Part shown: one piece after another, positions 18,300 through 43,697 of the stretch
Layout of the letters: the number at the start of each line of letters is the position of its first letter
How positions within the stretch are numbered: the first letter of the stretch is position 1
DNA from: a virus
Lineage: Duplodnaviria; Caudoviricetes
Length of the DNA stretch: 51,821 nt
Direction: 5' to 3' (one strand)
IMG/VR virus record: IMGVR_UViG_3300017754_001798
Location: 1 to 51,821 of that record
The notes under the pieces: generated by a model
Databases searched by the model: none
What the model saw: only the letters and a program-made list of their open reading frames with translations
Told to the model about the DNA's origin: nothing
Translations under genes and position numbers: made by a program

Positions 18300-18542
18300 T
18301 TATAGGGAGAACTTAGCCTGTTTCAGGATAGTCGATATCTTTTCTGCGTTAGATTTACGGGGTAACCATTCACCTACAAACCACTTGTAGATGGTCATCC
18401 TACTAACGCCAAAATACTCAGCTACATCTGATACGGGAATTTCTTTGGTGATGCAGAAGCGCCCCAGCGCAACGCCGGGGCTTTCCACACTAGCCTCTAA
18501 GTTCGCTTTGATGATCCTTGAAGCGTAACCACGGTTGTCCAT
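18300..18542 (-). CDS. Cro/CI-like helix-turn-helix protein
   Basis: VSDVAEYFGVSRMTIYKWFVGEWLP is a canonical HTH. Confidence 0.8.
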   Translation of the reverse strand: MDNRGYASRIIKANLEASVESPGVALGRFCITKEIPVSDVAEYFGVSRMTIYKWFVGEWLPRKSNAEKISTILKQAKFSL

Positions 18543-26755: not shown

Positions 26756-27210
26756 AGCAAACCTTTCTGGCGCATAACTTCTGCTGTTTGTATTGGGGTT
26801 TTATATGCTTTATGAATATCCTTCTCCATCTCATCCGCTAATATCTTTAACGCTTGTTTTGTTACCCCTTCTGGAGTAATCATAGAAGTCGGGTTCGTCA
26901 TACGTTGCGATATTGTCTCGCCGGGTATGTACGACTTTGATCCTCGGTCTTTCCCCTCAAACAAAGTCTCTATAATTGCTATTTTCGTTGAAGCTCTATG
27001 AAGTTTATTCATAGTAGAGGCTAAGGCGACACGCTCTGCAAAAGAAAACCGTCCGTTGTTAACAATATGCAGGTAGCCATGAGAAGCACGAAACTCCCCT
27101 GCGTACGCGTTTAGGGATATTCTCTCGCCGTTTTCTTCGAGCTTATCAATCAACATCTTCACTTCAGTACTACTGAATTTGTACGCGAGCTTTCTAATTA
27201 GTTTTTTCAC
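26752..27210 (-). CDS. Hypothetical protein
   Basis: 152 aa, AGGAG RBS, GTG start, stop overlaps the polA start. Confidence 0.65.
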   Translation of the reverse strand: MKKLIRKLAYKFSSTEVKMLIDKLEENGERISLNAYAGEFRASHGYLHIVNNGRFSFAERVALASTMNKLHRASTKIAIIETLFEGKDRGSKSYIPGETISQRMTNPTSMITPEGVTKQALKILADEMEKDIHKAYKTPIQTAEVMRQKGLL

Positions 27211-27241
27211 AGCTTCTCCTAGAGAACGGTCATGGGATCAG

Positions 27242-27535
27242 TCATCGCGGCAGAGTGTCCAGCCACACTATCAATTCGTCCAGATTGGTTTCATTGATAA
27301 CGAAGGCTCCCCCGCCAGCATCTCGTATTTGTTTTAGTTCTCGCTCTTGTAGCGCAGTGGGTTTGTTATTACCCGCTTTGGTTTCTACCGCAAAGAAGTG
27401 TCCTCGGTAGCAGCCTACGATATCAGGGACACCGCTACGTCCATACCCACCTGTAGCAGGCATGAAGTGATAAATACCACGCCGCAATAACTCAGCGCGA
27501 ACTTTGGTTTTGACTTTACCTTCAGGGGTAGACAT
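27242..27535 (-). CDS. VRR-NUC / Holliday-junction resolvase-like nuclease
   Basis: TPEGKVK, SGVPDIVGC, FAVETKA, PTALQ motifs; start at MSTPE. Confidence 0.85.
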   Translation of the reverse strand: MSTPEGKVKTKVRAELLRRGIYHFMPATGGYGRSGVPDIVGCYRGHFFAVETKAGNNKPTALQERELKQIRDAGGGAFVINETNLDELIVWLDTLPR

Positions 27536-27565
27536 TCCACTCTCACTACAGACAGAAGTGGACTC

Positions 27566-27595
27566 AGTATAGAATGGAAGAAGGGGAGGGTGCAA
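27566..27595 (-). promoter_or_regulatory. Putative sigma70 promoter of the replication operon
   Basis: TTGCAC-18 nt-TATACT with an AT-rich upstream tract. Confidence 0.55.
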
Positions 27596-27643
27596 TAGCT
27601 TTTTATATTTATTTTCGCTATCGCGTTGGAGATATTGATAGAT

Positions 27644-27684
27644 AAAAAAAAGGGGACAAACTGACCTGAAGTCAACTTGTCCCC
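27644..27684 (-). terminator. Intrinsic terminator built from a copy of the 27-bp dyad
   Basis: Minus strand GGGGACAAGTTGAC-TTCAG-GTCAGTTTGTCCCC then T8; 14-bp stem with two G-U pairs. Confidence 0.75.
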
Positions 27685-27711
27685 AAAGAACGGAGTTATC
27701 GTTGCTGAACG

Positions 27712-28578
27712 CTAACTGGTAGTAATTATCTCACCACCTGTCAGGTAATACCAATTGGTATTATCAATCGCAAACTTAACGCCGATAGATTCTACCGGTT
27801 GCTTATGCTCTAGCATACGCAGCATAGCCAGCTTGGTCTGATACAACTCAGACATCTCATACGTATCCTTAAACTTCTGTACACGCATTTCATCAGTCAG
27901 CCCACATGCGTCATGTAGTACTACACTTAGCAGCGTACCATCACGCTCCTCCTTGACCACAATGCCGCTGCCATTCTTGTAGTCGGTGTTCACCGACATA
28001 GCAATCCTAGCTGTGTTCATGAACTTATCCAAGTTTGGCTTCGCCACCATCTTAGTTAGCTCCGCACTTAGAGTCGGCACTTCCCCTCTGCCTACCATCA
28101 AAGCAAGTTCCATCAGCGGGATAATACTATCCTCGCCAACACGCTCGGCTTGGCGTACCGCGTTGTAGTGTATCCCACTAATCTCAGAACTCATCTTATG
28201 CCTTATCTTATCGATAACCTCCGCTGCCGTTGATGTGTGCGTAAAAACTCTTACGGACGTTTTCAATGCTTCCTCTGGCAGCTTGGTTACCTTGTCATGC
28301 CGCGAGCCTATACGGTTCCTGATGCGTGGCGAATGTATCGTATACACATCGCACCTACCGTTGTTCCTGAACGATCTGTGTTCCACCTCAATCGTGCCGA
28401 CCTGCTCGTTACCGTTGAACACAATAACCTCACGGATAACTTTGTGTTCTCCTATAAATCCAGCATTAAGAGACTCGAACGTAAGGTTCGGTATCTTGTG
28501 ATACAGCTTGGTCAGCAACTTTTCCAACGGTTCGTACAGCGGGTAGTCGATGTGTTCGACTTTCTTTTTAAGTTTCAT
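27712..28578 (-). CDS. Hypothetical protein
   Basis: ~288 aa from MKLKKK, AAGGGA RBS. Confidence 0.7.
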   Translation of the reverse strand: MKLKKKVEHIDYPLYEPLEKLLTKLYHKIPNLTFESLNAGFIGEHKVIREVIVFNGNEQVGTIEVEHRSFRNNGRCDVYTIHSPRIRNRIGSRHDKVTKLPEEALKTSVRVFTHTSTAAEVIDKIRHKMSSEISGIHYNAVRQAERVGEDSIIPLMELALMVGRGEVPTLSAELTKMVAKPNLDKFMNTARIAMSVNTDYKNGSGIVVKEERDGTLLSVVLHDACGLTDEMRVQKFKDTYEMSELYQTKLAMLRMLEHKQPVESIGVKFAIDNTNWYYLTGGEIITTS

Positions 28579-28588
28579 TCTATTCCCC

Positions 28589-29479
28589 TTACCAATCAAA
28601 TTTAGCCAAGATGCTATCAACCTTGTCCTTCACCTCAGAGCGTACTTCCTCATGCTCTTTCAGGTCATCGGTATCCACAGTGCTGATCGCCTTCTTCAAC
28701 TGGACTCGGGCATCTTCCAGCTTCTGATCGTTGGTTACGTTGAGGCGACCCAACAACTCCACAAGGCTATGCGCATTTGATAACATCGTATCGTGAAACA
28801 CCTTGCGCTTCCCATCCTGACTATCTGTCAGTCTGTCGCTCATGTGCAAGAGACAATCATGCAGTCTGCCCCATATGTCACGCATGGCTCCCTCGATACG
28901 CTGATTGAAATGCTCGGCGTACTGCTGCGCGAGTTCAGCTTTCGCTTGCTCGTTGATGTCGATACGGAAGTCCCCTGCTGTCGGCACTGGGCTAACAGCG
29001 TAGTGAAAGCGGAACTTATGGGCTATCGCTTCTACGTCTGGGTACTCGTCCCTGTCGAACAGATCACCCAACTGGAAGGCCGCAGCAGAGATCAGCGTTG
29101 GATACTGTTGTAGGAAACTTGCTGTGAGTTCCTCAAAGTTAGCCTTATGCTGATCCATCTGTGCTTTGAAGCCGTTGAAGAAATGCTCGGCTGTCACGAT
29201 GCGTTGGCCGTTGTCAGACCACGGCATAGTGTTCAGGTTGTTCCACAGTCGGGCTTGCGCCGCATACTTCAGCACCGCTTCGAGTGCGGGACTACCTGCC
29301 AACAGATGCTTGTGGTAATTACCCGCCTTGACCTTAGTGTTCTTAGCGGAGTCAACTTCGAGGCCCACCTTCTTGTCCAGTTTCCTAGCAGTCCAGCAAG
29401 AGATGCTGAGTTCGATAAGTAACGATGACGATGCGATACCAAACGTTTCGAACGTTGGGGTTTCAGTTATTGCGTTCAT
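28589..29479 (-). CDS. DUF3150-like helical protein
   Basis: LIELSISCWTARKLDK, YPTL..AAFQLGDLFDRDEYP motifs; follows the MoxR/vWA pair; family name is by recollection. Confidence 0.55.
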   Translation of the reverse strand: MNAITETPTFETFGIASSSLLIELSISCWTARKLDKKVGLEVDSAKNTKVKAGNYHKHLLAGSPALEAVLKYAAQARLWNNLNTMPWSDNGQRIVTAEHFFNGFKAQMDQHKANFEELTASFLQQYPTLISAAAFQLGDLFDRDEYPDVEAIAHKFRFHYAVSPVPTAGDFRIDINEQAKAELAQQYAEHFNQRIEGAMRDIWGRLHDCLLHMSDRLTDSQDGKRKVFHDTMLSNAHSLVELLGRLNVTNDQKLEDARVQLKKAISTVDTDDLKEHEEVRSEVKDKVDSILAKFDW

Positions 29480-29489
29480 GTGCTTCTCC

Positions 29490-30779
29490 TTATTCTACGT
29501 ACACAGATTGACCATGCTTTGCTACAAAGTCTTTGTTGCCCACCACGCACCACAACACAGGTGCATTGGTACGTTGCCACTCATGCCACGCATCACCGTA
29601 GAACTCACCATCGGTTAGCATGATGATGCACTGCGGTGCAATACGCTCGGCTTCGAGGAACTTGGGCACACACTCAGGTTGTGTACCACCGCCACCTCTG
29701 GGCTTCGTGCTATTGACAAGATTGCTGACTTCGTTACCGCGATAGGTTTCCCGTCCTGCTACGTGGCTATCCCAATACAGTAGTTCAACTGTCTCAGGCA
29801 TAACGTCATCACAGATAGACTTCACCTCGCCAAGAAACTGCGCTAAGGTGTTGCCTACATAAGTAGAACCCGATGCGTCTACGCCGATAACAAACGTCTC
29901 TGCCTTCTCGCTTATGGTGCTAGGCATGATGATGTCCACGCCCAGATACCTGCGGTTGGGTCTACGCCATGTTGACTTGTCACCACCACGCGTGTTCGAC
30001 TTGATGAACATACGCAGTGCTTCCTTCCAATCAACTTTCGGATGTAGCAACTCGTCGATACCACGCGGCACTTTGCCTTTCATCTTTCCTGCTAAGATAG
30101 CGCCTTCGCGCAAAGCGTTATCGATATCGTTCGACAACTGTTCCTCTTCCTCTTTCGACAATTCATCAGCACCTGCCCAATCATGATCGTCAAAGTTCTC
30201 TCCGCTCTTACCATGCTTGTCGTTGCCTTCATTGCCTTGACCACTACCAGAAGGACTTCCTGACCCACCGTCAGTTTGTCCCCCAGAGCCGCCGCTACCT
30301 TTGCCATCGCCACCACCGAACTCTTCCTTGAGTAGGTTGTAGACTTGCTTGGTATCCTTGTCACGATACTTCTCATCTAACAAACCAAGCAGAGTTCCAT
30401 CGGGGTTACGCGGCATAGTCACCACAGCCCCATGTGGGTCTGAGTCAATGATCTGAAGATTGATCACGTAGTCCATCGCTGCGTTGGCTAGTCTTGGATT
30501 CTCTTTGGCAATACCCTTCCACACCGTCAGGTGACGGTATGCCTTGTGCATCGCTTCGTGAACCACAACAAACGCAAGCTGCTTGTCATCTAGGGAATCG
30601 ACAAAGGCACGGCCATACGTAACGTCCCTACCGTTTGTCATCGCAGTCGGTACGGTTTCACTAACCGATACCTTGCCCACCATGAACACGCCAGAGAACA
30701 AACAGAAATCTTTGTTTCTCATTAGCTGTGCATGGGCACGTTCGATCCGCTTCTCTGCGGATAGTTTTACTGAAGCCAT
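29490..30779 (-). CDS. Zincin metallopeptidase + vWA domain protein (DUF2201-like)
   Basis: PTAMTNG, HEAMH, NAAMDYVIN; G/S linker; MIDAS DASGS, GGGGT, LTDG. Confidence 0.85.
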   Translation of the reverse strand: MASVKLSAEKRIERAHAQLMRNKDFCLFSGVFMVGKVSVSETVPTAMTNGRDVTYGRAFVDSLDDKQLAFVVVHEAMHKAYRHLTVWKGIAKENPRLANAAMDYVINLQIIDSDPHGAVVTMPRNPDGTLLGLLDEKYRDKDTKQVYNLLKEEFGGGDGKGSGGSGGQTDGGSGSPSGSGQGNEGNDKHGKSGENFDDHDWAGADELSKEEEEQLSNDIDNALREGAILAGKMKGKVPRGIDELLHPKVDWKEALRMFIKSNTRGGDKSTWRRPNRRYLGVDIIMPSTISEKAETFVIGVDASGSTYVGNTLAQFLGEVKSICDDVMPETVELLYWDSHVAGRETYRGNEVSNLVNSTKPRGGGGTQPECVPKFLEAERIAPQCIIMLTDGEFYGDAWHEWQRTNAPVLWCVVGNKDFVAKHGQSVYVE

Positions 30780-31012
30780 TGCAGTTCTCCCTTCTTGTCT
30801 TGTTCGAACTCGTCGATGTGTGTTGATAAACCCTTGATAACTTCGGTTATGAAAGTTTCTTTGGGCATTACGTCGCTGTCGTGCATACTTGCGAGCATGT
30901 AAATCATGGCGGGTATGATGTGCCCGATCTGATACCCGTCGAGTACTTCGTTCATCGTGTTGCAGATCTGCTCTGCTGCGTCTCTTGCTTCTTCCAGTTC
31001 GTGGTCAGTCAT
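30767..31012 (-). CDS. Hypothetical protein
   Basis: 81 aa, AGGAG RBS, between the ATPase and vWA genes. Confidence 0.6.
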   Translation of the reverse strand: MTDHELEEARDAAEQICNTMNEVLDGYQIGHIIPAMIYMLASMHDSDVMPKETFITEVIKGLSTHIDEFEQDKKGELQWLQ

Positions 31013-31021
31013 GTTGTTCTC

Positions 31022-32083
31022 CTAGAACAAGTATTGGTTATCACGCATCCAGTTAATGAACGCGCTGCTAGTCATGAGGATGTTCTTCTTGTCCTCGTTC
31101 TTGCTTGTGGTAACACAGAACACAGATTGCAACTCTTTCGGTGTGCGCTTCAAGTACTCGAACCACGCTCCGATGTTGCCACGATCAATCTTCTGCACCG
31201 CGCTGTACGCCATGATGCACAATGCTGCTGCGTTCGTAGGTACGTTGGCTCCCTTGGGGTTTTTAATAACTTCGTCCCATGTTGGTAAGCTGTCAGCAAC
31301 TTCCACATACGCAAGCAAGTCACGCGCTGAACACTCACCGATAGTCCCGCACAACGCTGCGATCAACGCATTGCGTGAGATGGTGTGACGCTTCAACAAG
31401 ATGTTGCTTGCACGATGCCCTGAACGCTGCGAGAAGAATGACTTCTGCGGTGTCTTCGGATTGAAGATGTGGTTGTTATCCTTCTGCGATGGGTCTTTGT
31501 AGGAAGCCATCACCTCTGGATACTGACGTACGAAAGCCAGCAACTCAGGTGCATAGTTCATACGCGTACCGTAGTCCACATACTCTTCCCATGTCGCCTT
31601 GCGTACTGGAACCACCGTCATACGATTCAAGCTGTGTGCTTTCAGCATGTCGCCCACGCCATCGGACAGATTGTTACCTGCTGTGATAACAAAGCTATCT
31701 GGATGTAGTTTCATCCCACCAATGCGACGCTCGTTCAACAGTGGGTGCAACATGTTCTGCACTGCTTGGCTCGAAGGCTTGGTGAACTCGTCGATAAAGA
31801 TCACCATTGGTTCTTGCTTATGGAAACCCCAAACCTCGTTAGGATAGAGAGATGTTGTCTTGGTCTCATGGTTGGGCATCGGGATACCAATGTCACCCAA
31901 CTCGGTGTTTGGTGTGTCGATGTACACACCGCGATAGCCTGTGCGTTGTACCAGACGCTCGTACATTGCTGTTTTGCCAATCCCAGGTTCGCCCACCAGA
32001 TGGATGGCGTTCTGCGTACCGACGTTCAAGATGAGTTCTTCTGCTTCAGCAAGGGATACTTCCACGTTCATGCGAATTTCCAT
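31022..32083 (-). CDS. MoxR-like AAA+ ATPase
   Basis: Walker A GEPGIGKT, Walker B IFIDE, ITAGN sensor, LNRM arginine finger; adjacent vWA gene. Confidence 0.85.
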   Translation of the reverse strand: MEIRMNVEVSLAEAEELILNVGTQNAIHLVGEPGIGKTAMYERLVQRTGYRGVYIDTPNTELGDIGIPMPNHETKTTSLYPNEVWGFHKQEPMVIFIDEFTKPSSQAVQNMLHPLLNERRIGGMKLHPDSFVITAGNNLSDGVGDMLKAHSLNRMTVVPVRKATWEEYVDYGTRMNYAPELLAFVRQYPEVMASYKDPSQKDNNHIFNPKTPQKSFFSQRSGHRASNILLKRHTISRNALIAALCGTIGECSARDLLAYVEVADSLPTWDEVIKNPKGANVPTNAAALCIMAYSAVQKIDRGNIGAWFEYLKRTPKELQSVFCVTTSKNEDKKNILMTSSAFINWMRDNQYLF

Positions 32084-32128
32084 TTTTATTCTCCTAGTTG
32101 TGACATTCTGACGGGATGTCAGTTTGTC

Positions 32129-33133
32129 TTAGATTGCAAACGGCATTGCTGCACCGTCTGATTTGTAGTCCACGTACTTGCTGTTCTCATCGAGAACAAC
32201 TTTGCCCTTCTCTACTGCTTCCTTCTTGAATAGGTAATCAGCGTAGTGATACCGGCACAGCTCATAAAAGAAGTCCCGCGCCGCCTGCGGCGTGATCGCA
32301 TACTTGTATATCTGCGCTGCCCAGTCGTACTGCTTGTTCGCTGCGTTGACCACCAACTGCTCTGCCAATGGCAGAAAGTTAGTCAACTTGTCCTCTCCTG
32401 TTACGAACATAGCCAAGTTCAGCATGTAGAAAAACTCCTCCCTCTCTCGTATCTGTGGCTTGCTGTTCCACCGCAAGTCGCCCTTGATCACCGACAGCTT
32501 CTTCTGCTGGATGATGTCAGACGCCGCCCGCGTACCTACCATCTGTGAGTAGTAAGTTAGGTATTCGGTGAACTCGGCGTAGTGTTTCCTGACCCTTGCC
32601 ATCATGTCCTTGTCCAGCACCCACGCGTACTCGGATGCGCCACCGGTTACCTCGTTGTACATGCCCAACTTAAGTACGCTCTCGAACCTATGCTCACCAT
32701 TGGCAGGTGACCCGTCACAGAAATACAGCTTGCCCCGCCGTCTAGTGATACCCGCCCACTTCGAGTTCCCAGAACCAAAATCGCTACGTGCAGCGAATCC
32801 CGCATTGGCCGATTGGCACTGGTTAAACCTGCTACGCAAGACCGTATTGATGAAGTCCATTGTCCCTATGGTTTCCCACGAACCATGTTTAAGCACTATG
32901 CTGTCGTCTGGGTAAAACGTAATTACTGGGCAGGTGTGGAAAGAGAGAATGACCGATCCCACTTTGCCATCAACGTCAGTGCTTGTTGTGATCAAGCTCC
33001 TGTCATACCGGCGGTTGTTACCCAACGGACGCAGCCCCTTGCTCCGCCCCCTCTTGTACGGTTGCCTGCTTTGATACCAAGCTAATGCTTCAGCGAAAGT
33101 GCTGAGTTTTGGCAGATCGTCTCCTCGGTACAT
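32129..33133 (-). CDS. Hypothetical early protein
   Basis: 334 aa, AGGAGG RBS. Confidence 0.7.
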   Translation of the reverse strand: MYRGDDLPKLSTFAEALAWYQSRQPYKRGRSKGLRPLGNNRRYDRSLITTSTDVDGKVGSVILSFHTCPVITFYPDDSIVLKHGSWETIGTMDFINTVLRSRFNQCQSANAGFAARSDFGSGNSKWAGITRRRGKLYFCDGSPANGEHRFESVLKLGMYNEVTGGASEYAWVLDKDMMARVRKHYAEFTEYLTYYSQMVGTRAASDIIQQKKLSVIKGDLRWNSKPQIREREEFFYMLNLAMFVTGEDKLTNFLPLAEQLVVNAANKQYDWAAQIYKYAITPQAARDFFYELCRYHYADYLFKKEAVEKGKVVLDENSKYVDYKSDGAAMPFAI

Positions 33134-33135
33134 AG

Positions 33136-33330
33136 TTAACCCTCCTTGATCATCTCGAACTGAATCCCCTCAGCGGTGCGAACCAACCGCACCTCCCCGT
33201 CTGCCACCTTGACCAACCCCTCTTTGATGATGGCTAGGATTGTCACTAGCCTCGATAGCTTGTTGATAAGATGATAGGCATAGAGTGCCTGCCCCAGACA
33301 AATAACCCCAAGTACGATTACTGACTCCAT
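33136..33330 (-). CDS. Small membrane-associated protein
   Basis: 64 aa, hydrophobic N-terminus, GGAGG RBS. Confidence 0.55.
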   Translation of the reverse strand: MESVIVLGVICLGQALYAYHLINKLSRLVTILAIIKEGLVKVADGEVRLVRTAEGIQFEMIKEG

Positions 33331-33331
33331 C

Positions 33332-33571
33332 TCATACCTCCCCTACCTGTTTAACCTGCTCTGCGATTGTGTTGATCAGCACCTGCATGGCTGTGATCAC
33401 CGCGACTTTGTCCTTCGGTTCGAGCGTCTCGATTATTGTGTATGCGTACTCGTAGGCTTCGCCGATTGACCCCTTGGTTGCAAACATAGGCGCTTGAAGC
33501 CCGCTTGCTAGTTTGATAATGTCATCACGGGCTGCGTCTTGTGCTGCGTACTGCGCTTCGATTGATCTCAT
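33332..33571 (-). CDS. Hypothetical early protein
   Basis: 79 aa, AGGAG RBS just downstream of a dyad copy. Confidence 0.65.
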   Translation of the reverse strand: MRSIEAQYAAQDAARDDIIKLASGLQAPMFATKGSIGEAYEYAYTIIETLEPKDKVAVITAMQVLINTIAEQVKQVGEV

Positions 33572-33605
33572 GTTGCTCTCCTAGTTGAGACAAACTGACG
33601 GGATG

Positions 33606-33812
33606 TCAGATTGTCGTTGCGTTTATTTCGTTTATTTCTGCTTTCATTTTGTTAACTTCGGTTACCCTGAGTTGCGCGTTGAGGCGTAGCTGCACCTCGC
33701 GAATTGGCTCGGACTGCTTACCAAAGAAGCCATACAGCAGGGCGTTGTTCTCCCTGATGCGTTGCTCGTCCGCTTCCCTACGAAGTTTGTATAAGTCTTT
33801 ACTGGTTGGCAT
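33606..33812 (-). CDS. Hypothetical early protein
   Basis: From MPTSKDLY; TGA stop lies inside the dyad at 33589-33615. Confidence 0.55.
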   Translation of the reverse strand: MPTSKDLYKLRREADEQRIRENNALLYGFFGKQSEPIREVQLRLNAQLRVTEVNKMKAEINEINATTI

Positions 33813-33813
33813 G

Positions 33814-33927
33814 TCACTTCCCCCAAAAGCCAAGTAACAGCATCAGCAATGCGCCGATAGCCGTACCCAAGATTGCGCCAATGACGGCGGTTATGATTGC
33901 AATTACTTCGTTCTCGTCCAGTTTCAT
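33814..33927 (-). CDS. 37-aa single-TM peptide (not in ORF track)
   Basis: MKLDENEVIAIITAVIGAILGTAIGALLMLLLGFWGK*, GGAG RBS, ATGA overlap, fills the gap between neighbouring genes. Confidence 0.6.
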   Translation of the reverse strand: MKLDENEVIAIITAVIGAILGTAIGALLMLLLGFWGK

Positions 33928-34115
33928 TTCGTTCTCCATCTCAAATCGTTCATTGTCATCACCTCGCGGTAGTAGATACGGGCATACCGCTTGAACTCAG
34001 GCTCGTCAGGGAACAGCACACGAGCATAAACCTCTGCTGCTTCTTTCGTATCAAACAGCGTAGGCATGACGTACTCCTCGTCATGCTCCCCTCGCACATA
34101 CCAGACCTGATTCAT
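33924..34115 (-). CDS. Hypothetical early protein
   Basis: From MNQVWYVRG, GAGG RBS, ATGA overlap. Confidence 0.6.
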   Translation of the reverse strand: MNQVWYVRGEHDEEYVMPTLFDTKEAAEVYARVLFPDEPEFKRYARIYYREVMTMNDLRWRTK

Positions 34116-34324
34116 GTTGTCCTCTTTGGGTTGAGTTGCTTCAGTGTCTCGATGCTGCTGATGTAGTAATAGTTGCTCTTGTTCAGCGGCGCGATGCAAT
34201 GCTTCACTTTCTTAGCTGCTTCCTCGCCACACTGGACGCAGGTTTTGTAGCCAAGTTTGTAACGTGCATGGGCGATGAACCCGCCGCACACTACGCATAA
34301 GTACCTCGTATCTTCGTTACTCAT
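34112..34324 (-). CDS. DksA/TraR-like C4 zinc-finger protein
   Basis: CVVCGGFIAHARYKLGYKTCVQC. Confidence 0.7.
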   Translation of the reverse strand: MSNEDTRYLCVVCGGFIAHARYKLGYKTCVQCGEEAAKKVKHCIAPLNKSNYYYISSIETLKQLNPKRTT

Positions 34325-34523
34325 CCTTGCCTCCCTTCGCTGCTAGGTAACTCTCTAGCGCCTTGATTAGATTGTTACGCTCTATTACCCGCTGCATTAC
34401 CTCCTGCTTGGTGCAGCAAGTTGCGGGTTTTAGCTGTCTCAGGCACATGGCAAACAGCTTGTCGTATGTAGCGGTTAGCTGCTCCACGTTGGCTTTTATC
34501 TCCGCGACTCGCTCGTTACTCAT
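34317..34523 (-). CDS. Hypothetical early protein
   Basis: From MSNERVAEIK, GAGGAG RBS, 8-nt overlaps at both ends. Confidence 0.55.
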   Translation of the reverse strand: MSNERVAEIKANVEQLTATYDKLFAMCLRQLKPATCCTKQEVMQRVIERNNLIKALESYLAAKGGKDE

Positions 34524-34707
34524 TTGGCATCTCCTCATTACTTTCGGCGTTGCTTTGGGGCAGCGTCTCTGGGTCTGTCCTTGCACATGCTTGGCAGATG
34601 GTGTGTCCGTAAGCTAGGCGGGTTTTGCCGATTGGGTTGGTCAGGCAGCGTCTGCATGTGTTTGGGTTGCGTGGGTTGTGTGCATGTTTGCGTTGTTGTT
34701 TAGACAT
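34516..34707 (-). CDS. Second DksA/TraR-like C4 zinc-finger protein
   Basis: CRRCLTNPIGKTRLAYGHTICQAC; ATG and SD lie within a dyad copy. Confidence 0.55.
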   Translation of the reverse strand: MSKQQRKHAHNPRNPNTCRRCLTNPIGKTRLAYGHTICQACARTDPETLPQSNAESNEEMPNE

Positions 34708-34888
34708 CCTGACCACCTGTCAGTTTGTCGTTGTTTTTGTGATACGCATCGGCAGCTTCGTTGACCCGCAACTGCTCTGCGTACATGTGGTTGAGTTCGT
34801 GCTGTGCCCACATGTATTCCTCGCGGTCGGTGTTTGGATTGGCAAGGATGTGGCGCAGATACGAGGCGCGGTTGAATAAGTCGGACAT
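34700..34888 (-). CDS. First gene of the leftward early operon, hypothetical
   Basis: 62 aa; GGAGG SD is the N5 centre of the dyad at 34884-34910. Confidence 0.6.
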   Translation of the reverse strand: MSDLFNRASYLRHILANPNTDREEYMWAQHELNHMYAEQLRVNEAADAYHKNNDKLTGGQDV

Positions 34889-34948
34889 GATGACCCTCCG
34901 TCAGATTGTCGTTGGTTACGTTAGGGGCGATCTCCCACTAACCCCTCT

Positions 34949-34977
34949 ATTATAGCATAATAACTATACAAAGTCAA
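34949..34977 (-). promoter_or_regulatory. Strong sigma70 early promoter
   Basis: TTGACT-17 nt-TATAAT with extended -10 TG. Confidence 0.85.
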
Positions 34978-35252
34978 GTTAGTGTCTGGTGTGTGGAGTG
35001 GTTGTCTTGCATGATAGGAAGAGAGGGAGTGTGGGTCAAATACTTCTCGGAGCAATTTGCACCGGTGCAAGTTCAAGATGAAAAGCTATTTGCACTGACA
35101 CACGGCGTTGCTTGTGGTGTAGTGGGACGGGATGGAGTGAGCTACGTGAGCCACGGGTAATGGTGTTGTTCTGGATTGTTCGGGGGTTTGGGAAAAATAG
35201 AGAACAAATGCGAGAATGGCAACGGTTTTGGCGAGGAGGCAAAGTCCAATAA

Positions 35253-35265
35253 AATCAACGACTTA
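35253..35265 (+). promoter_or_regulatory. IHF-consensus site 1
   Basis: AATCAACGACTTA matches WATCAANNNNTTR. Confidence 0.55.
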
Positions 35266-35283
35266 CGGCGTTGTAAATGTTGT

Positions 35284-35626
35284 TAATGTTGCTATTGTTC
35301 GAAAAAAAAAAATTAGAGAACATTAGGTCTAGCAAAAATGCGGATTGTACGGAATGTTCTAATGTTCTTTAGTTTAGAGAGAGCGGAGCTAAAATCGCTG
35401 TTGCTATTTGTAGAAGATGTGGGGCTGCACTTGCCAAGAGGCGCGTTCGAAGTCAAAAATCCGTACATGCTGAAAAACGTCGGAACATTAGAACATTATA
35501 GAACAATTAACGAAATTTTGATAACATTTTGAGACAAAACCCAATATAATCAATGAGTTACACGCGATTTATAATGTTCGAAAATTTTCTTGTAATGTTC
35601 TGCGTTTTTGGTTTTTTCGAACATTA
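35284..35626. repeat. AT-rich cluster of GAACATTA/TAATGTTC octamers (iteron-like)
   Basis: Exact copies at 35318, 35360, 35483, 35491, 35572, 35593, 35619; partial copies at 35284, 35294, 35353, 35501. Confidence 0.7.
35548..35560 (+). promoter_or_regulatory. IHF-consensus site 2
   Basis: AATCAATGAGTTA matches WATCAANNNNTTR. Confidence 0.55.
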
Positions 35627-35687
35627 GGGACAAAATGACGCCTTGTCAGGATGTCGAACTTAAAAAACTGCAATAGGGAGAGTTTAC

Positions 35688-35762
35688 TGCCTATTTTTTA
35701 AGCAGATTGCCTATTTTTTAGGCACTGCCTATTTTTTAAGCAGATTGCCTATTTTTTAGGCA
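35688..35762. repeat. Four tandem 17-bp quasi-palindromes TGCCTATTTTTTA(A/G)GCA (Fis-consensus-like)
   Basis: Copies at 35688, 35708, 35726, 35746 (38-bp unit x2); inner 15-mer fits G-N2-YR-N5-YR-N2-C. Confidence 0.8.
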
Positions 35763-35787
35763 GCGCGTGGGGAATTCCCATGCAAGT

Positions 35788-35812
35788 GGCTACCGCGTTG
35801 GTATGACCGTTC
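35788..35812 (+). repeat. 25-bp direct repeat, copy 1
   Basis: GGCTACCGCGTTGGTATGACCGTTC, identical to 36576-36600. Confidence 0.9.
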
Positions 35813-35875
35813 TCTCCTCTATATTGCAAAGACAACAACACTATTGAAAAGACAAAGCTCATAGATAAATACAAT

Positions 35876-35904
35876 TTGATAGGATGATAGGAAAACGAGA
35901 TAAT
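35876..35904 (+). promoter_or_regulatory. Putative sigma70 promoter of cassette 1
   Basis: TTGATA-17 nt-GATAAT; homologous sequence recurs at about 36701-36731. Confidence 0.55.
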
Positions 35905-35955
35905 TATCCCTGACGAACTGACATGGGGTCAGCAAGTCGTAACTTGGAGAAACAA

Positions 35956-36519
35956 ATGAGTGCAATCAAGTCCGGCGAAATGTTCGCCCGTAGTGAGATC
36001 GAAGCAACCGAAGCCCTTGAAGTATTCGCCCGCGATGTCGGAACCGAGCCAACCTATGAGGCGTGGAACGCCGCCCGCGTGGACTTCATCAACGGCTACG
36101 TGATGGTCAAGCCGCAAGCCAAAGGCGATGCCTCTGACAAGGCATTCCAGCGATTCAAGGATCGGCTTGTAGATCGTTTTGGTATCACCGTACCAAAGGC
36201 CACTAGCGAAGGCGCGATCAAGAAAGCCGCCGAGCGCAAGGCCAAAGAGGAAAAGCTTGTAGCGAAGTATGCGGACGCTACGCCGACTCTGCTACGCTCC
36301 CAGATCGAGGCGTGCTATCAGACTCTAGCCAAGAATCCGGATAGCAAGGTAGCCAAAGCGCAAGCCGCCGAGCTTGGCAAGGTTTTGAAGATCAAGACCC
36401 GCGAAACCGACAAGGCCGAGCGTGGTGAGATCAAGGCGATCAAGGATGATATCCGCGAAGCCCTGAAGCTTTGCGATGATGCTACCAAGCTTGAAGCCGC
36501 ACTCGAAGCCTTGCAGTAA
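35956..36519 (+). CDS. Helical hypothetical protein, paralog A
   Basis: GGAGA RBS then ATG at 35956; aligns with 36783-37412. Confidence 0.8.
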   Translation: MSAIKSGEMFARSEIEATEALEVFARDVGTEPTYEAWNAARVDFINGYVMVKPQAKGDASDKAFQRFKDRLVDRFGITVPKATSEGAIKKAAERKAKEEKLVAKYADATPTLLRSQIEACYQTLAKNPDSKVAKAQAAELGKVLKIKTRETDKAERGEIKAIKDDIREALKLCDDATKLEAALEALQ

Positions 36520-36537
36520 TCCGATCAACCCAACCAG

Positions 36538-36560
36538 ACCCGCCGAAAGGCGGGTTTTTT
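36538..36560 (+). terminator. Intrinsic terminator
   Basis: ACCCGCC-GAAA-GGCGGGT followed by a T-run. Confidence 0.9.
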
Positions 36561-36575
36561 ATTTTTGCTCAAAAA

Positions 36576-36600
36576 GGCTACCGCGTTGGTATGACCGTTC
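36576..36600 (+). repeat. 25-bp direct repeat, copy 2
   Basis: Identical to 35788-35812. Confidence 0.9.
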
Positions 36601-36782
36601 CCTTCCCTTTTTTATAACATTTCCTATTGACGTAGTGACAAGCTGGTCATCATGTCGGACCAGCAGCTATTAAATTCCCTATCATGATAGTGACAATCAA
36701 TTGGATAAGATCATAGGAAACGCGAGATAATCCCCGTACTGGTTCAGCAATTGGGCTGACCAGTTTTTTAGGGAGAATCACC

Positions 36783-37412
36783 ATGGAGAAATCCATCATC
36801 GCCGAGCAGGTATCTGCTCTGTCCGCCGAGCAGTCATTGACTGCTAAAGACTGCGGTTTCCAGTATGCACGGAATCAATTAGCTGTTTTCGAAAACGCTA
36901 GGGATTATGCTGGCATGCTGGGCACTGATCCTACATTCGACCAGTGGGAAGCTGGCCGCTTGCAGTGGGTTTCTGGGTACGTGGAAGCAAACCCAGCCAA
37001 TACTGGTAATGCAGCCGACAAGGCTTGGGACCGCTTTTCTGGTTTGCTGAATGAGTTTTTCGGGTTAGTCAAACCGAAATCAGCCAGCGCAGCAGCAGAG
37101 AAAAAGCGTATCGAGCGCGAGAAAAAGCAGCAGGAACTACTGGAAAAACATGGTGATTTGACTCCGACCATGATTCGCGCCCAGATGGAAGCAGCATATC
37201 AAACCCTCGCCAAGAACCCGACCAACAAGGAAGCAGCGAAGCAGGTTAAAGAACTGGACAAGGTTTTGAAGGTGAAGCAGTCAGCCGAGAACAAGCAGCA
37301 CGGCGAAGAACTGAAGTCACTCAGAACCGAAGTCAAAGACGCAGTTGGCAAGTGTACCAATATCGGTTTGCTTGAATCTGTACTGGCAGCATTGACTGAA
37401 GCAGCAGAGTAA
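36783..37412 (+). CDS. Helical hypothetical protein, paralog B
   Basis: 209 aa, AGGGAG RBS; GTDPTFDQW and YQTLAKNP match paralog A. Confidence 0.8.
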   Translation: MEKSIIAEQVSALSAEQSLTAKDCGFQYARNQLAVFENARDYAGMLGTDPTFDQWEAGRLQWVSGYVEANPANTGNAADKAWDRFSGLLNEFFGLVKPKSASAAAEKKRIEREKKQQELLEKHGDLTPTMIRAQMEAAYQTLAKNPTNKEAAKQVKELDKVLKVKQSAENKQHGEELKSLRTEVKDAVGKCTNIGLLESVLAALTEAAE

Positions 37413-37475
37413 TCAATCGGGAGTGTCCGGTAATTAGCCTGGACACTCTCACTACCATCTTAGGGAGAATCAACC

Positions 37476-37706
37476 ATGATCGAACGCACCTCTGGCAAAC
37501 TGGTAATCAAAACCTACATCAACCACAACCAGCCAGATCAGCATGGCCGACAGTCTGGCAAGTGGGTAACTCTCATGACCCAGCATGGCCTGAGCTATGA
37601 AGAGGCCGACACTGCTGGCCGAGAGTTTATTAAAAACAATGAGCGGTTCAGTGGCACCGAACTATTCGCCCAGTGGATGCCATATGCGCAGCATGTATAT
37701 CTCTGA
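37476..37706 (+). CDS. Hypothetical protein
   Basis: 76 aa, same TAGGGAGAATCA leader as 36783, followed by a terminator. Confidence 0.7.
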   Translation: MIERTSGKLVIKTYINHNQPDQHGRQSGKWVTLMTQHGLSYEEADTAGREFIKNNERFSGTELFAQWMPYAQHVYL

Positions 37707-37725
37707 TCCACCCAGCATCAACGAG

Positions 37726-37749
37726 AACCCAGCTTCGGCTGGGTTTTTT
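37726..37749 (+). terminator. Intrinsic terminator
   Basis: AACCCAGC-TTCG-GCTGGGTT followed by a T-run. Confidence 0.9.
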
Positions 37750-37963
37750 ATTGCCAGCAGCAGACAGGCCGACCCAGTTAATCTGGCTGGCTGGCCGACC
37801 CTACCCGCCCCCGACCCCCCTAAAAATCGCTTACCACCCTACCGCACATATACACTATGATTTGCACATCACATCATCGCGTTTCAAAAACACATACAAA
37901 AATAACAACATATAACTTAAACCACCCCTATTGATAAGTTATTCGCATACCCCCCCCACCCCC

Positions 37964-37992
37964 TTGTTTTTTCTGCATCACTTACTTATACT
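37964..37992 (+). promoter_or_regulatory. Putative sigma70 promoter upstream of the packaging operon
   Basis: TTGTTT-17 nt-TATACT. Confidence 0.45.
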
Positions 37993-38056
37993 GCGCTGGC
38001 AGAAACACCCCCCTATGTTTTTCTTTTAGGATCCATATAGGTAGGGTAATATTTCT

Positions 38057-38250
38057 GCGGGGAAAGCGGATGGTGCTTCTTTTGATTAACTGGGGTTCAT
38101 CAACGCACTGGAGCGAGTACCCTGTACCAACACGCATGAGGATTGGAGCCCGAGTCCGCAAGACTTAGTAGGCTTGCCAAAAGATAGCCAGCAGTCCTAG
38201 GAAACTCTGGATGAGACAAGCTAGATAGCCAGTCCTCAGTCGTGTTGGTA
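38057..38250 (+). ncRNA. Candidate structured RNA(s) upstream of terS
   Basis: Nested stems at 38057-38125, and long-range stems 38125-38134/38241-38250 and 38137-38146/38229-38238; no ORF. Confidence 0.5.
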
Positions 38251-38294
38251 TTAATTAGTACCTATCTTCATCTGTCTCTCAGACAAGGCAGAAC

Positions 38295-38912
38295 ATGACA
38301 ATTGAGATACAACCTACTGAAGGTGTGCCCGTCCCCAAAGATTTGGGCGACGAAGTCGGCGCGTCTTTGCAGGATAACGCTCGTGTCGCTGCCAACACGG
38401 CTGCACTTATGGCAGAGCTTGGGATGCCCTTCGAAATGACGGAGGAAGATGAGAAGTTAGCCCATGACTTGTTTAAACAGGTCGATGCCAAAAAACAAAA
38501 AACCCCTTCAGGCCAGTACAACCCCGCAGCTTTATATCAGGGCAACGTAGCCTTGAAGCTGTCTGCTCTATTAAATGAGTACGACCAGCGGGTTGTCTTG
38601 GATGCTACCCAAGCACGGACCTATATAACTAATAGACTCCTTGAAATATCCTCTTGCGGCGATGCTAGGTACGAGCTAAAGGCTATCGAGCTCCTTGGCA
38701 AGCTTTCCGATGTTGGTGCTTTCACAGAGAAGTCCGAAGTAACCATCACTCACCGCACTTCAGATGACCTAAAGACAGCCATTGCGGACAAAATTAACCG
38801 TCTTTTGGCGGCTCAAGCGGCAAATACCATTGATATAACCCCCGAACACGACTCTCTAGAAGCAGAATTAGGACTTTTAGATCCTCCAACCCCGGAGGAA
38901 AACCCAGAATGA
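38295..38912 (+). CDS. terS: Terminase small subunit (putative)
   Basis: Immediately upstream of terL with ATGA overlap; LKAIELLGKLSDVGAFTEKSEV motif. Confidence 0.7.
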   Translation: MTIEIQPTEGVPVPKDLGDEVGASLQDNARVAANTAALMAELGMPFEMTEEDEKLAHDLFKQVDAKKQKTPSGQYNPAALYQGNVALKLSALLNEYDQRVVLDATQARTYITNRLLEISSCGDARYELKAIELLGKLSDVGAFTEKSEVTITHRTSDDLKTAIADKINRLLAAQAANTIDITPEHDSLEAELGLLDPPTPEENPE

Positions 38913-43117: not shown

Positions 43118-43312
43118 GTGGACAAAGCACTGGAAGTTATTAAAGACAAGATAAATGAGAAACAAGCTTTCCTAGCCAAAGCGGTTAGTGAAGGTATTGC
43201 AAAGGATTACACGGAGTATCGTGCAATGTGCGGGGAGATTCGGGGTCTATCCATCGCAGAAGGTTTTATTTTAGATCTCGCAGACCAAATGGAGCGCCAC
43301 GAAGATGAGTGA
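43118..43312 (+). CDS. Small hypothetical protein
   Basis: 64 aa, AAGGAG RBS, GTG start, Y..MCGEIRGL motif. Confidence 0.65.
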   Translation: MDKALEVIKDKINEKQAFLAKAVSEGIAKDYTEYRAMCGEIRGLSIAEGFILDLADQMERHEDE

Positions 43313-43697
43313 AATACTAATCGCTACAGAAAGCGGTGTAGTACCACAGGAAGCAGAAGAAAAAGCCAAGCAATTACCACAGCCAACGGGGTATCACATC
43401 CTTGTCGGGCTGCCGGAAATTGAAGATACGTACGAGAGTGGACTGATTAAAGCAGACCAAACTCGTCATTTTGAAGAGGTACTAGCGACGGTATTTTTTG
43501 TCATTGAGCTTGGACCAGATTGCTACAAAGACGAAAAGCGTTTCCCAAGTGGCCCGTGGTGTAAGCCGGGGGATTTCATTTTGGCTCGTCCAAATAGTGG
43601 CACTCGGTTGAAGATTCACGGACAAGAGTTCCGCATGATTAATGACGACACGGTCGAGGCCGTTGTTCAAGACCCCCGTGGCATCCGCCGCGCATAA
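43305..43697 (+). CDS. groES: Phage co-chaperonin GroES
   Basis: PTGYHILV, mobile-loop-like ESGLI, VIELGP, KPGDFI, FRMINDDTVEAVV. Confidence 0.85.
   Translation: MSEILIATESGVVPQEAEEKAKQLPQPTGYHILVGLPEIEDTYESGLIKADQTRHFEEVLATVFFVIELGPDCYKDEKRFPSGPWCKPGDFILARPNSGTRLKIHGQEFRMINDDTVEAVVQDPRGIRRA

Follow-up and report, generated by a model that had tools for sequence, protein, structure and literature searches.

A lineage-specific dyad array across the early region of freshwater podophages and a candidate protein that may read it

The Cluster A mycobacteriophages L5 and Bxb1 are temperate phages with an integrase or parABS, with a monomeric helix-turn-helix (HTH) immunity repressor, Rep, which blocks elongation when bound, and with stoperators, asymmetric sites of 13-14 bp that are oriented with transcription and occur 20-30 times per genome (PMC6550527). 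Lambdoid immunity regions, such as those of lambda and 434, provide orthogonal repressor-operator specificities in related phages (PMC6550527). In Cluster O mycobacteriophages, a 17-bp dyad, TGTTCGG-N3-CCGAACA, is present in more than 30 copies genome-wide; its function is given as unknown and its authors predict a dimeric binder (PMC4351075). On plasmid p576, the autoregulated ribbon-helix-helix repressor Reg576 acts on four promoters with a double operator, and early genes fire after DNA entry and are then silenced (PMC6294495). Here, we analysed the IMG/VR virus record IMGVR_UViG_3300017754_001798, a partial podophage genome from freshwater of 51,821 nucleotides (the window), in which a dyad of the form GACA-N3-TGAC-N5-GTCA-N3-TGTC is repeated across the early region. 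An earlier note had read these repeats as a region-wide silencing or marking system analogous to stoperators, or as an RNA element, and had named as candidate readers the HTH protein encoded at 18300 and a paralogous pair encoded at 35956 and 36783.

Set against the covered parts of these papers, the array resembles the Cluster A stoperators in that there are many sites, most of them not associated with promoters and lying in short gaps and in genes, and in that the motif diverges along with its regulator, forming specificity groups, here with one exception, the record G061 (PMC6550527). Unlike stoperators, the sites are unoriented dyads of 27-29 bp that number about 6-12 per genome and are confined to the early region (PMC6550527). 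The candidate reader has no known fold, unlike Rep, and no tyrosine integrase (PF00589) was found in 5/5 complete records (control 14/14). With the Cluster O dyad the array shares multiple unoriented copies, both intergenic and intragenic, in phages without integrase (PMC4351075), whereas it differs in sequence, in geometry (a single 7-3-7 palindrome there) and in its restriction to the early region; the covered passages of that paper name neither a reader nor lineage-specific types (PMC4351075). Reg576 is alike in its timing logic and in the position, though only the position, of an operator at the regulator's own promoter, where the window has a copy 7 bp after the -10 box. It differs in that our candidate reader is predicted to be all-helical and not ribbon-helix-helix, and in that most of the sites lie away from promoters. 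Unlike the single compact locus of the lambdoids, the sites here extend over about 9 kb and each is kept, while the genes between them are homogenised. A literature search, covering titles and abstract starts with few subscription journals and no supplements, returned no description of the dyad motif or of its reader. What is new here is the concerted swapping of the sites and the candidate reader.

A pattern scan of all 51,821 bases with up to 3 mismatches found nine copies of 27 bp and no others; shuffled sequences gave a mean of 0.24, and 0/100 shuffles reached nine. A tenth copy of 28 bp, with an N6 centre and 1 mismatch, was found at 36629-36656, and other spacer lengths from 3 to 8 gave no further copy with fewer than 3 mismatches. 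N5 was without constraint and N3 was mostly unpaired. The by-eye reading of the earlier note was correct on these points: the six copies it called exact (27655, 32102, 33589, 34703, 34884 and 35629) are exact, those it gave 1-2 mismatches have 1 (30254) or 2 (28811 and 35912), the N6 copy is in place, and there are no copies elsewhere. Its claim that the better half-site lies upstream relative to local transcription and flips at the 35-kb divergence was not borne out. Counts of the better half upstream versus downstream were 38 versus 27 near gene starts, 23 versus 7 inside genes (mostly one orthologous site), 5 versus 8 at the terminator copy and 9 versus 13 in the rightward unit, which is no consistent polarity.

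The copies cover the leftward early operon (27712..34888, minus strand), the gap between two divergent promoter-like sites and the two rightward paralogues. The putative leftward early promoter (34949..34977, minus strand) is a sigma70-type consensus match, TTGACT-17-TATAAT, with 11/12 positions and an extended -10. About 40 bp downstream of its -10 box lies an exact copy (34884..34910) with N5 = GGAGG and the ATG of the first early open reading frame (ORF; 34700-34888) in its arm. In the next exact copy (34703..34729), the minus-strand N5 is AGGTG and a small Cys-rich ORF probably starts at an ATG in the arm. Both of these first copies have the ribosome-binding site (RBS) within N5 and the start codon within the arm. 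Exact copies were also found upstream of the RBS of the ORF 33332-33571 (33589..33615) and between the stop of the ORF 32129-33133 and the RBS of a MoxR-type AAA ATPase gene (32102..32128). A copy with 1 mismatch (30254..30280) encodes part of the Gly-rich linker of a metallopeptidase-vWA (DUF2201) gene, and a degenerate one with 2 mismatches (28811..28837) lies within a DUF3150-like gene. The last copy (27655..27681, minus strand) ends the operon just upstream of the VRR-NUC gene. It forms a GC-rich hairpin of 15 pairs followed by T8 as a U-tract (-21.5 kcal/mol) and doubles as an intrinsic terminator; a copy was present at the equivalent position in 24 oriented records that were classed. On the other side, an exact copy (35629..35655) lies in the non-coding stretch that separates the two divergent promoter-like sites. 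The copy at 35912..35938, with 2 mismatches, begins 7 bp after the -10 box of TTGATA-17-GATAAT (35876..35904, plus strand), a consensus match that would serve the first candidate reader gene, and thus lies at the expected transcript start of that gene. Relatives have a copy placed similarly at the reader transcript start, and we regard the 35912 copy as a likely autoregulatory operator. The 28-bp copy lies upstream of a promoter-like site of the second paralogue.

The array was then compared among relatives. An exact-pattern scan of viral contigs returned at least 203 loci with at least 201 distinct exact copies. Of 50 motif-bearing records 24 were fetched, and the array occurred together with the early module in 23 of these, G025 having neither. 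Thirteen records cover both borders of the early region. They contain 107 copies between terS and VRR-NUC (132,247 bp) and, outside, 1 copy in 493,462 bp, located at the border. In the same records neighbouring copies were separated by a median of 1,010 bp and by at most 2.9 kb, or roughly one site per kb. Gene order between the sites is conserved, and the positions of the copies shift between genes and gaps. When 192 copies were classed, 82 were near gene starts, 37 in genes, 24 at the terminator, 25 in the rightward unit and 24 elsewhere. Under the copy in the vWA linker, six third codon positions were invariant in 19/19 variants, whereas flanking ones vary. Since the amino acids change at the same time, selection acts on the nucleotides. 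The restriction to the early region, with no uniform genome-wide background, and the synonymous-site conservation support the view of the earlier note that the copies fit a symmetric protein-binding site better than a plain hairpin. The stoperator-like distribution that it had pointed to also stands, whereas silencing itself has the status of a proposal. Taken together, the copies are conserved and symmetric, are restricted to one region and behave like a DNA site for protein binding.

To collect further relatives, DUF3150 and AAA alignments were used (the best 80 of 583 and the best 80 of 431 loci), followed by de novo motif scans. Among the relatives scanned, the same geometry was found with other letters. 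The arms start with GACA, AACA or CACA, and the inner tetramers include TTAC, TGAG, TTTC, CTAG, CCGY, TGTC, TAAC, CGAC, TTAG, CCAT, CAAG, CGAA and others. The spacer is 5, 6 or 7 and fixed per lineage, giving dyads of 27-29 bp. A type was assigned to 76 of 81 non-redundant contigs that include 7 kb or more of early region, 36 of the 76 being TGAC, and the other 5 stayed without a type. Seventeen of the labels are double-dyad types, besides the shorter relatives of TGAC, and 19 labels were set by hand. More distant phages have single palindromes at equivalent positions: ATACTGTC-N-GACAGTAT in G073 and G083, GGGTCAC-N-GTGACCC in G025 and CTAAA-N3-TTTAG in G087. The isolate MinM2 (L204, OQ594354, record 2165-63559) has the same AAA-DUF3150-vWA module and 25 copies of GTTCA-N3-TGAAC, some of them beyond the early region. 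These short palindromes are closer to the Cluster O dyad than the 27-mers are, as far as the covered passages describe it.

The types are exchanged between phages that are otherwise nearly identical. Within the pairs L414/G065 and L418/L421, much of the AAA-vWA-DUF3150 DNA is 95-98% identical, yet L414 and L418 are of the CCGY type and G065 and L421 of the CTAG type. In these pairs, the 27-mer is replaced at orthologous positions with near-identical flanks. The swap is repeated independently in L475 (TGAC, N5) versus L476 (TAAC, N6), where the backbone is 97% and gp66 96-98% identical and the reader 63-64%; these two still have one TGAC copy in common. In L283/G024, L282/G055 and L452, inner tetramers are mixed (TGAC, TTAC, TTTC, TTCC, GTAC) with constant GACA ends, possibly a relaxed or transitional specificity.

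The gene that follows the type is that of the paralogous pair. Paralogue A (35956..36519, plus strand) encodes 187 amino acids and paralogue B (36783..37412, plus strand) 209, about 40% identical to A. In 7/7 records with a pure array, reader identity was 53-86% within a type and 30-37% between CCGY and CTAG, and among ten gene trees the reader tree alone separates CCGY from CTAG. When gene identity was correlated with motif distance for 14 genes (partial rank correlation, backbone removed), the reader was strongest with -0.67 over 56 records and -0.77 over close pairs, although the record pairs are not independent and the values carry no valid p-value. The same measures were -0.43/-0.47 for the neighbouring terS, which came next, -0.37/-0.40 for gp66 and +0.33/-0.31 for the HTH. 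Since, of the genes tested, the reader alone swaps with the set of sites between near-identical relatives, it likely binds the dyads. Of the candidates named in the earlier note, the pair at 35956/36783 therefore stands, as the best and a likely reader of the dyads, whereas the HTH does not.

Two models of the reader protein are confidently all-helical with no strand (AlphaFold2, AF2; pLDDT 92.7 and 89.6). The family comprises 365 clusters at 50% identity, and among 79 sequences P80 is invariant and R94 nearly so. Comparison with PDB sequences, Pfam and the ESM Atlas gave no family, an absence from match lists that excludes nothing, an HTH included; PHROG likewise gave none for paralogue A. 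DUF3102 at 0.77-0.78 is a lead only. For the N-domain, weak and non-significant structure matches were obtained to XerA residues 18-91 (Z 4.4, root-mean-square deviation 5.0, 67 aligned) and to the protelomerase TelA 121-192 (Z 4.8, 3.8, 70 aligned). In MinM2, the first early gene (54908-55471, 187 amino acids) is a candidate reader in a cultured phage. In the window, a second element, CC.CGTTG..ATGACCG, precedes each paralogue (35793 and 36581); it was present in 9/19 records checked, all 9 in the two-paralogue TGAC-like group. Another dyad, ACTGGTTCAGC-N-GCTGACCAGT, lies at the expected transcript start of paralogue B (36738-36764), where relatives have a degenerate motif copy. Intrinsic-terminator-like hairpins follow paralogue A (36536-36557) and an ORF of 76 amino acids (37725-37750, spotted by eye), and from these each rightward gene may be its own transcription unit.

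Our verdict from these comparisons is that the array is real, conserved and lineage-coded, with a specific candidate reader, and points to dispersed operator control. We propose that the ten copies are operators for early helical proteins of the phage itself, 35956/36783, which likely bind them and would repress their own promoter and the early operon, and give this a probability of roughly 0.55. The reader would be the first protein to be made, under a strong promoter of host type, and would dimerise so that each half reads an 11-bp arm, with the constant ACA and the variable inner tetramer. At transcript starts, its own included, it would serve as an operator-bound repressor, and at the sites in genes and at gene junctions, about one per kb, it would form a roadblock or occlude gene starts. 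In this way the reader would shut down the early host-takeover operon, the last copy additionally ending the transcript as a terminator. It would also act in trans on a phage of the same type that arrives later, silencing its early region. Because same-type co-infecting phages would be silenced, rare types would gain, and this advantage would explain why the reader is exchanged together with the full set of sites, as a group, while recombination homogenises the intervening genes. Reader and sites are best read as swappable specificity groups. More tentatively, and with the odds against it, the array may be a self-recognition system of integrase-less freshwater phages, in which a first-expressed protein of new fold reads a lineage barcode that recurs about once per kb in the DNA expressed first, silences or excludes kin with the same barcode and, driven by competition among phages, diversifies into many orthogonal reader-site pairs; distant relatives including MinM2 would have built it anew from other palindromes, with first genes that are unrelated.

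Several observations, besides the non-independence of the record pairs, weigh against the reader as operator-bound repressor. The reader gene sits at one end of the early region, and linkage therefore adds to its correlation with the motif. Foldseek against PDB and BFVD gave no match at E<=0.001, and the VIA fold comparison of both models gave a best Z of 6.3 and none of at least 8. The protein is near neutral (net -4 to +3), with only the helix 4-5 segment mildly basic. In the distant relatives with short palindromes, the first gene is another small one without detectable reader homology; a profile comparison with the first gene of G083/G073 gave a probability of 0.1%. The copies at the rightward transcript start favour G-U-compatible changes, 10 versus 1 A-C. 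In G061, which has the backbone of L418, a CCGY array is combined with a CTAG-type reader and a single CTAG site next to it; in L315 the array is mixed and the reader lies outside the covered sequence. Recombination or chimeric assembly may account for both, but G061 was counted as a real exception (1/8). Since no integrase was found, classic lysogen immunity is unlikely to supply the selection. Neither integrase nor ParA was detected in 75 extra ORFs of 3 records, where border-crossing ORFs were skipped and serine recombinases were not searched by family.

The same reader and sites could have a role outside transcription, marking or organising the first-entering DNA as self by entry licensing, nuclease shielding, looping or exclusion of other genomes. 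This is the main rival to operator control. The even spacing of copies whose positions shift between genes and gaps would suit it, as would the copy between the divergent promoters and the depth step near 35733, a weak hint of a genome end. We consider it unlikely, since copies at the reader transcript start and on RBSs and start codons are operator-like; moreover, contig depth is not copy number and the step falls at a short tandem repeat, where assemblies can break. A protein-read RNA hairpin with a 3x3 internal loop, serving processing, stabilisation or translational control, is improbable. Hairpins of -7.8 to -21.5 kcal/mol were obtained at seven of the places folded, and six of these seven are copies of the motif. 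The terminator copies are better paired than the others, N3 included, and the G-U excess of the rightward copies and the pairing of positions 1/27 in 30/30 CCGY copies also point to RNA, but the latter is largely a trait of individual genomes. Among 129 distinct copies that are transcribed and are not terminators, the tetramers deviate in a G-U-compatible way 14 times and as A-C 13 times, and the N3 centre shows G-U 15 versus A-C 29. Degenerate inner positions in variant lineages paired no more than by chance: 13/30 (14.3 expected), 4/12 (6.2), 18/26 (19.2) and 5/10 (5.0). This lack of covariation favours a DNA site. The loop is unconstrained, the spacer length is fixed within a lineage and Rfam had 0 matches in 27000-38500. 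The marks of a structured RNA, covariation and tolerance of G-U pairs in the transcribed strand, were thus not found, with the terminator and rightward copies as partial exceptions, and the RNA element of the earlier note fails as a general explanation. We read the element as a DNA site whose terminal copy serves as an RNA terminator as well.

Other binding partners fit less well. The XRE-like HTH of the replication operon (18300..18542, minus strand) has the sole recognisable DNA-binding domain in the window, was found in 28/50 motif-bearing records, many of them fragments, and would be expressed after the early operon, as fits a shut-off factor. However, its recognition helix SRMT(I/V)YKW is identical in TGAC, TTAC, TGAG, CTAG and CCGY phages, so that it was rejected as reader of the variable tetramer, and its identity does not follow motif type. 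That it or another small early protein is the reader is highly doubtful; gp66 is 96% identical across the L475/L476 swap. With 11-bp arms and a 5-7-bp spacer, the dyads resemble tyrosine-recombinase targets in geometry; XerA and TelA are among the weak, non-significant matches of the reader. Partner sites of such enzymes have an identical spacer, and differing spacers would block strand exchange. That the copies serve site-specific recombination or gene shuffling is very improbable, since N5 differs between copies, PF00589 was absent from the 5/5 complete records and gene order between the sites is conserved. Finally, the early promoters are host-type, which would agree with a host transcription factor at the sites. 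This we find hardly credible, since phages that are 95-98% identical (terS 96-100%) have different types at all sites and the type follows a phage gene.

If operator control by 35956/36783 holds, it gives phage dyad arrays of the Cluster O type, a class of open function, a reader that can be tested. It suggests immunity-like specificity groups in phages without detected integrase, with operators over 9 kb switching in concert. The 17 double-dyad types and 365 protein clusters would form a natural library of likely orthogonal protein-DNA pairs around a protein without known fold.

The remaining features of the window were assigned as follows. Besides small ORFs and two unknown proteins of 334 and 302 amino acids, the early operon encodes the MoxR-type AAA ATPase (31022-32083), the DUF3150-like protein (28589-29479) and a protein with metallopeptidase DUF2201_N and vWA-like DUF2201 domains according to Pfam (29490-30779), which PHROG 1314 labels as an HNH endonuclease instead. 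AWTGTTC/GAACAWT repeats cluster at 35175-35775 (11 in 600 bp), and 6-15 per 600 bp were found near the equivalent place in 18/19 records, irrespective of dyad type; the cluster is possibly a replication origin and the target of the invariant HTH at 18300. A short tandem repeat of four copies, whose unit contains TGCCTATTTTTT, extends over 35685-35765 and coincides with a contig break in several runs. Contig depth, which does not equal copy number, was about twofold that of the flanks from 35733 to about 37750-37983 in 2/4 runs (X2, X3) and stepped up at 35733, at this assembly-breaking repeat, in X4; it weakly hints at a terminal repeat or genome end at about 35.7-38.0 kb containing the reader genes. 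Most public runs containing the window are freshwater metagenomes, and none of those listed is an RNA run. In GTDB contigs 7 loci were found, flanks not examined; because all lie in metagenome-assembled or uncultured bins of mixed taxa, no host is named. The window further encodes a terminase with 53% identity to that of Pelagibacter phage HTVC027P, a portal, a capsid, a DarB-like virion protein of 2,426 amino acids and the leftward replication operon. A GroES co-chaperonin gene (43305-43697) adjoins the portal gene and is kept in the relatives and in MinM2.

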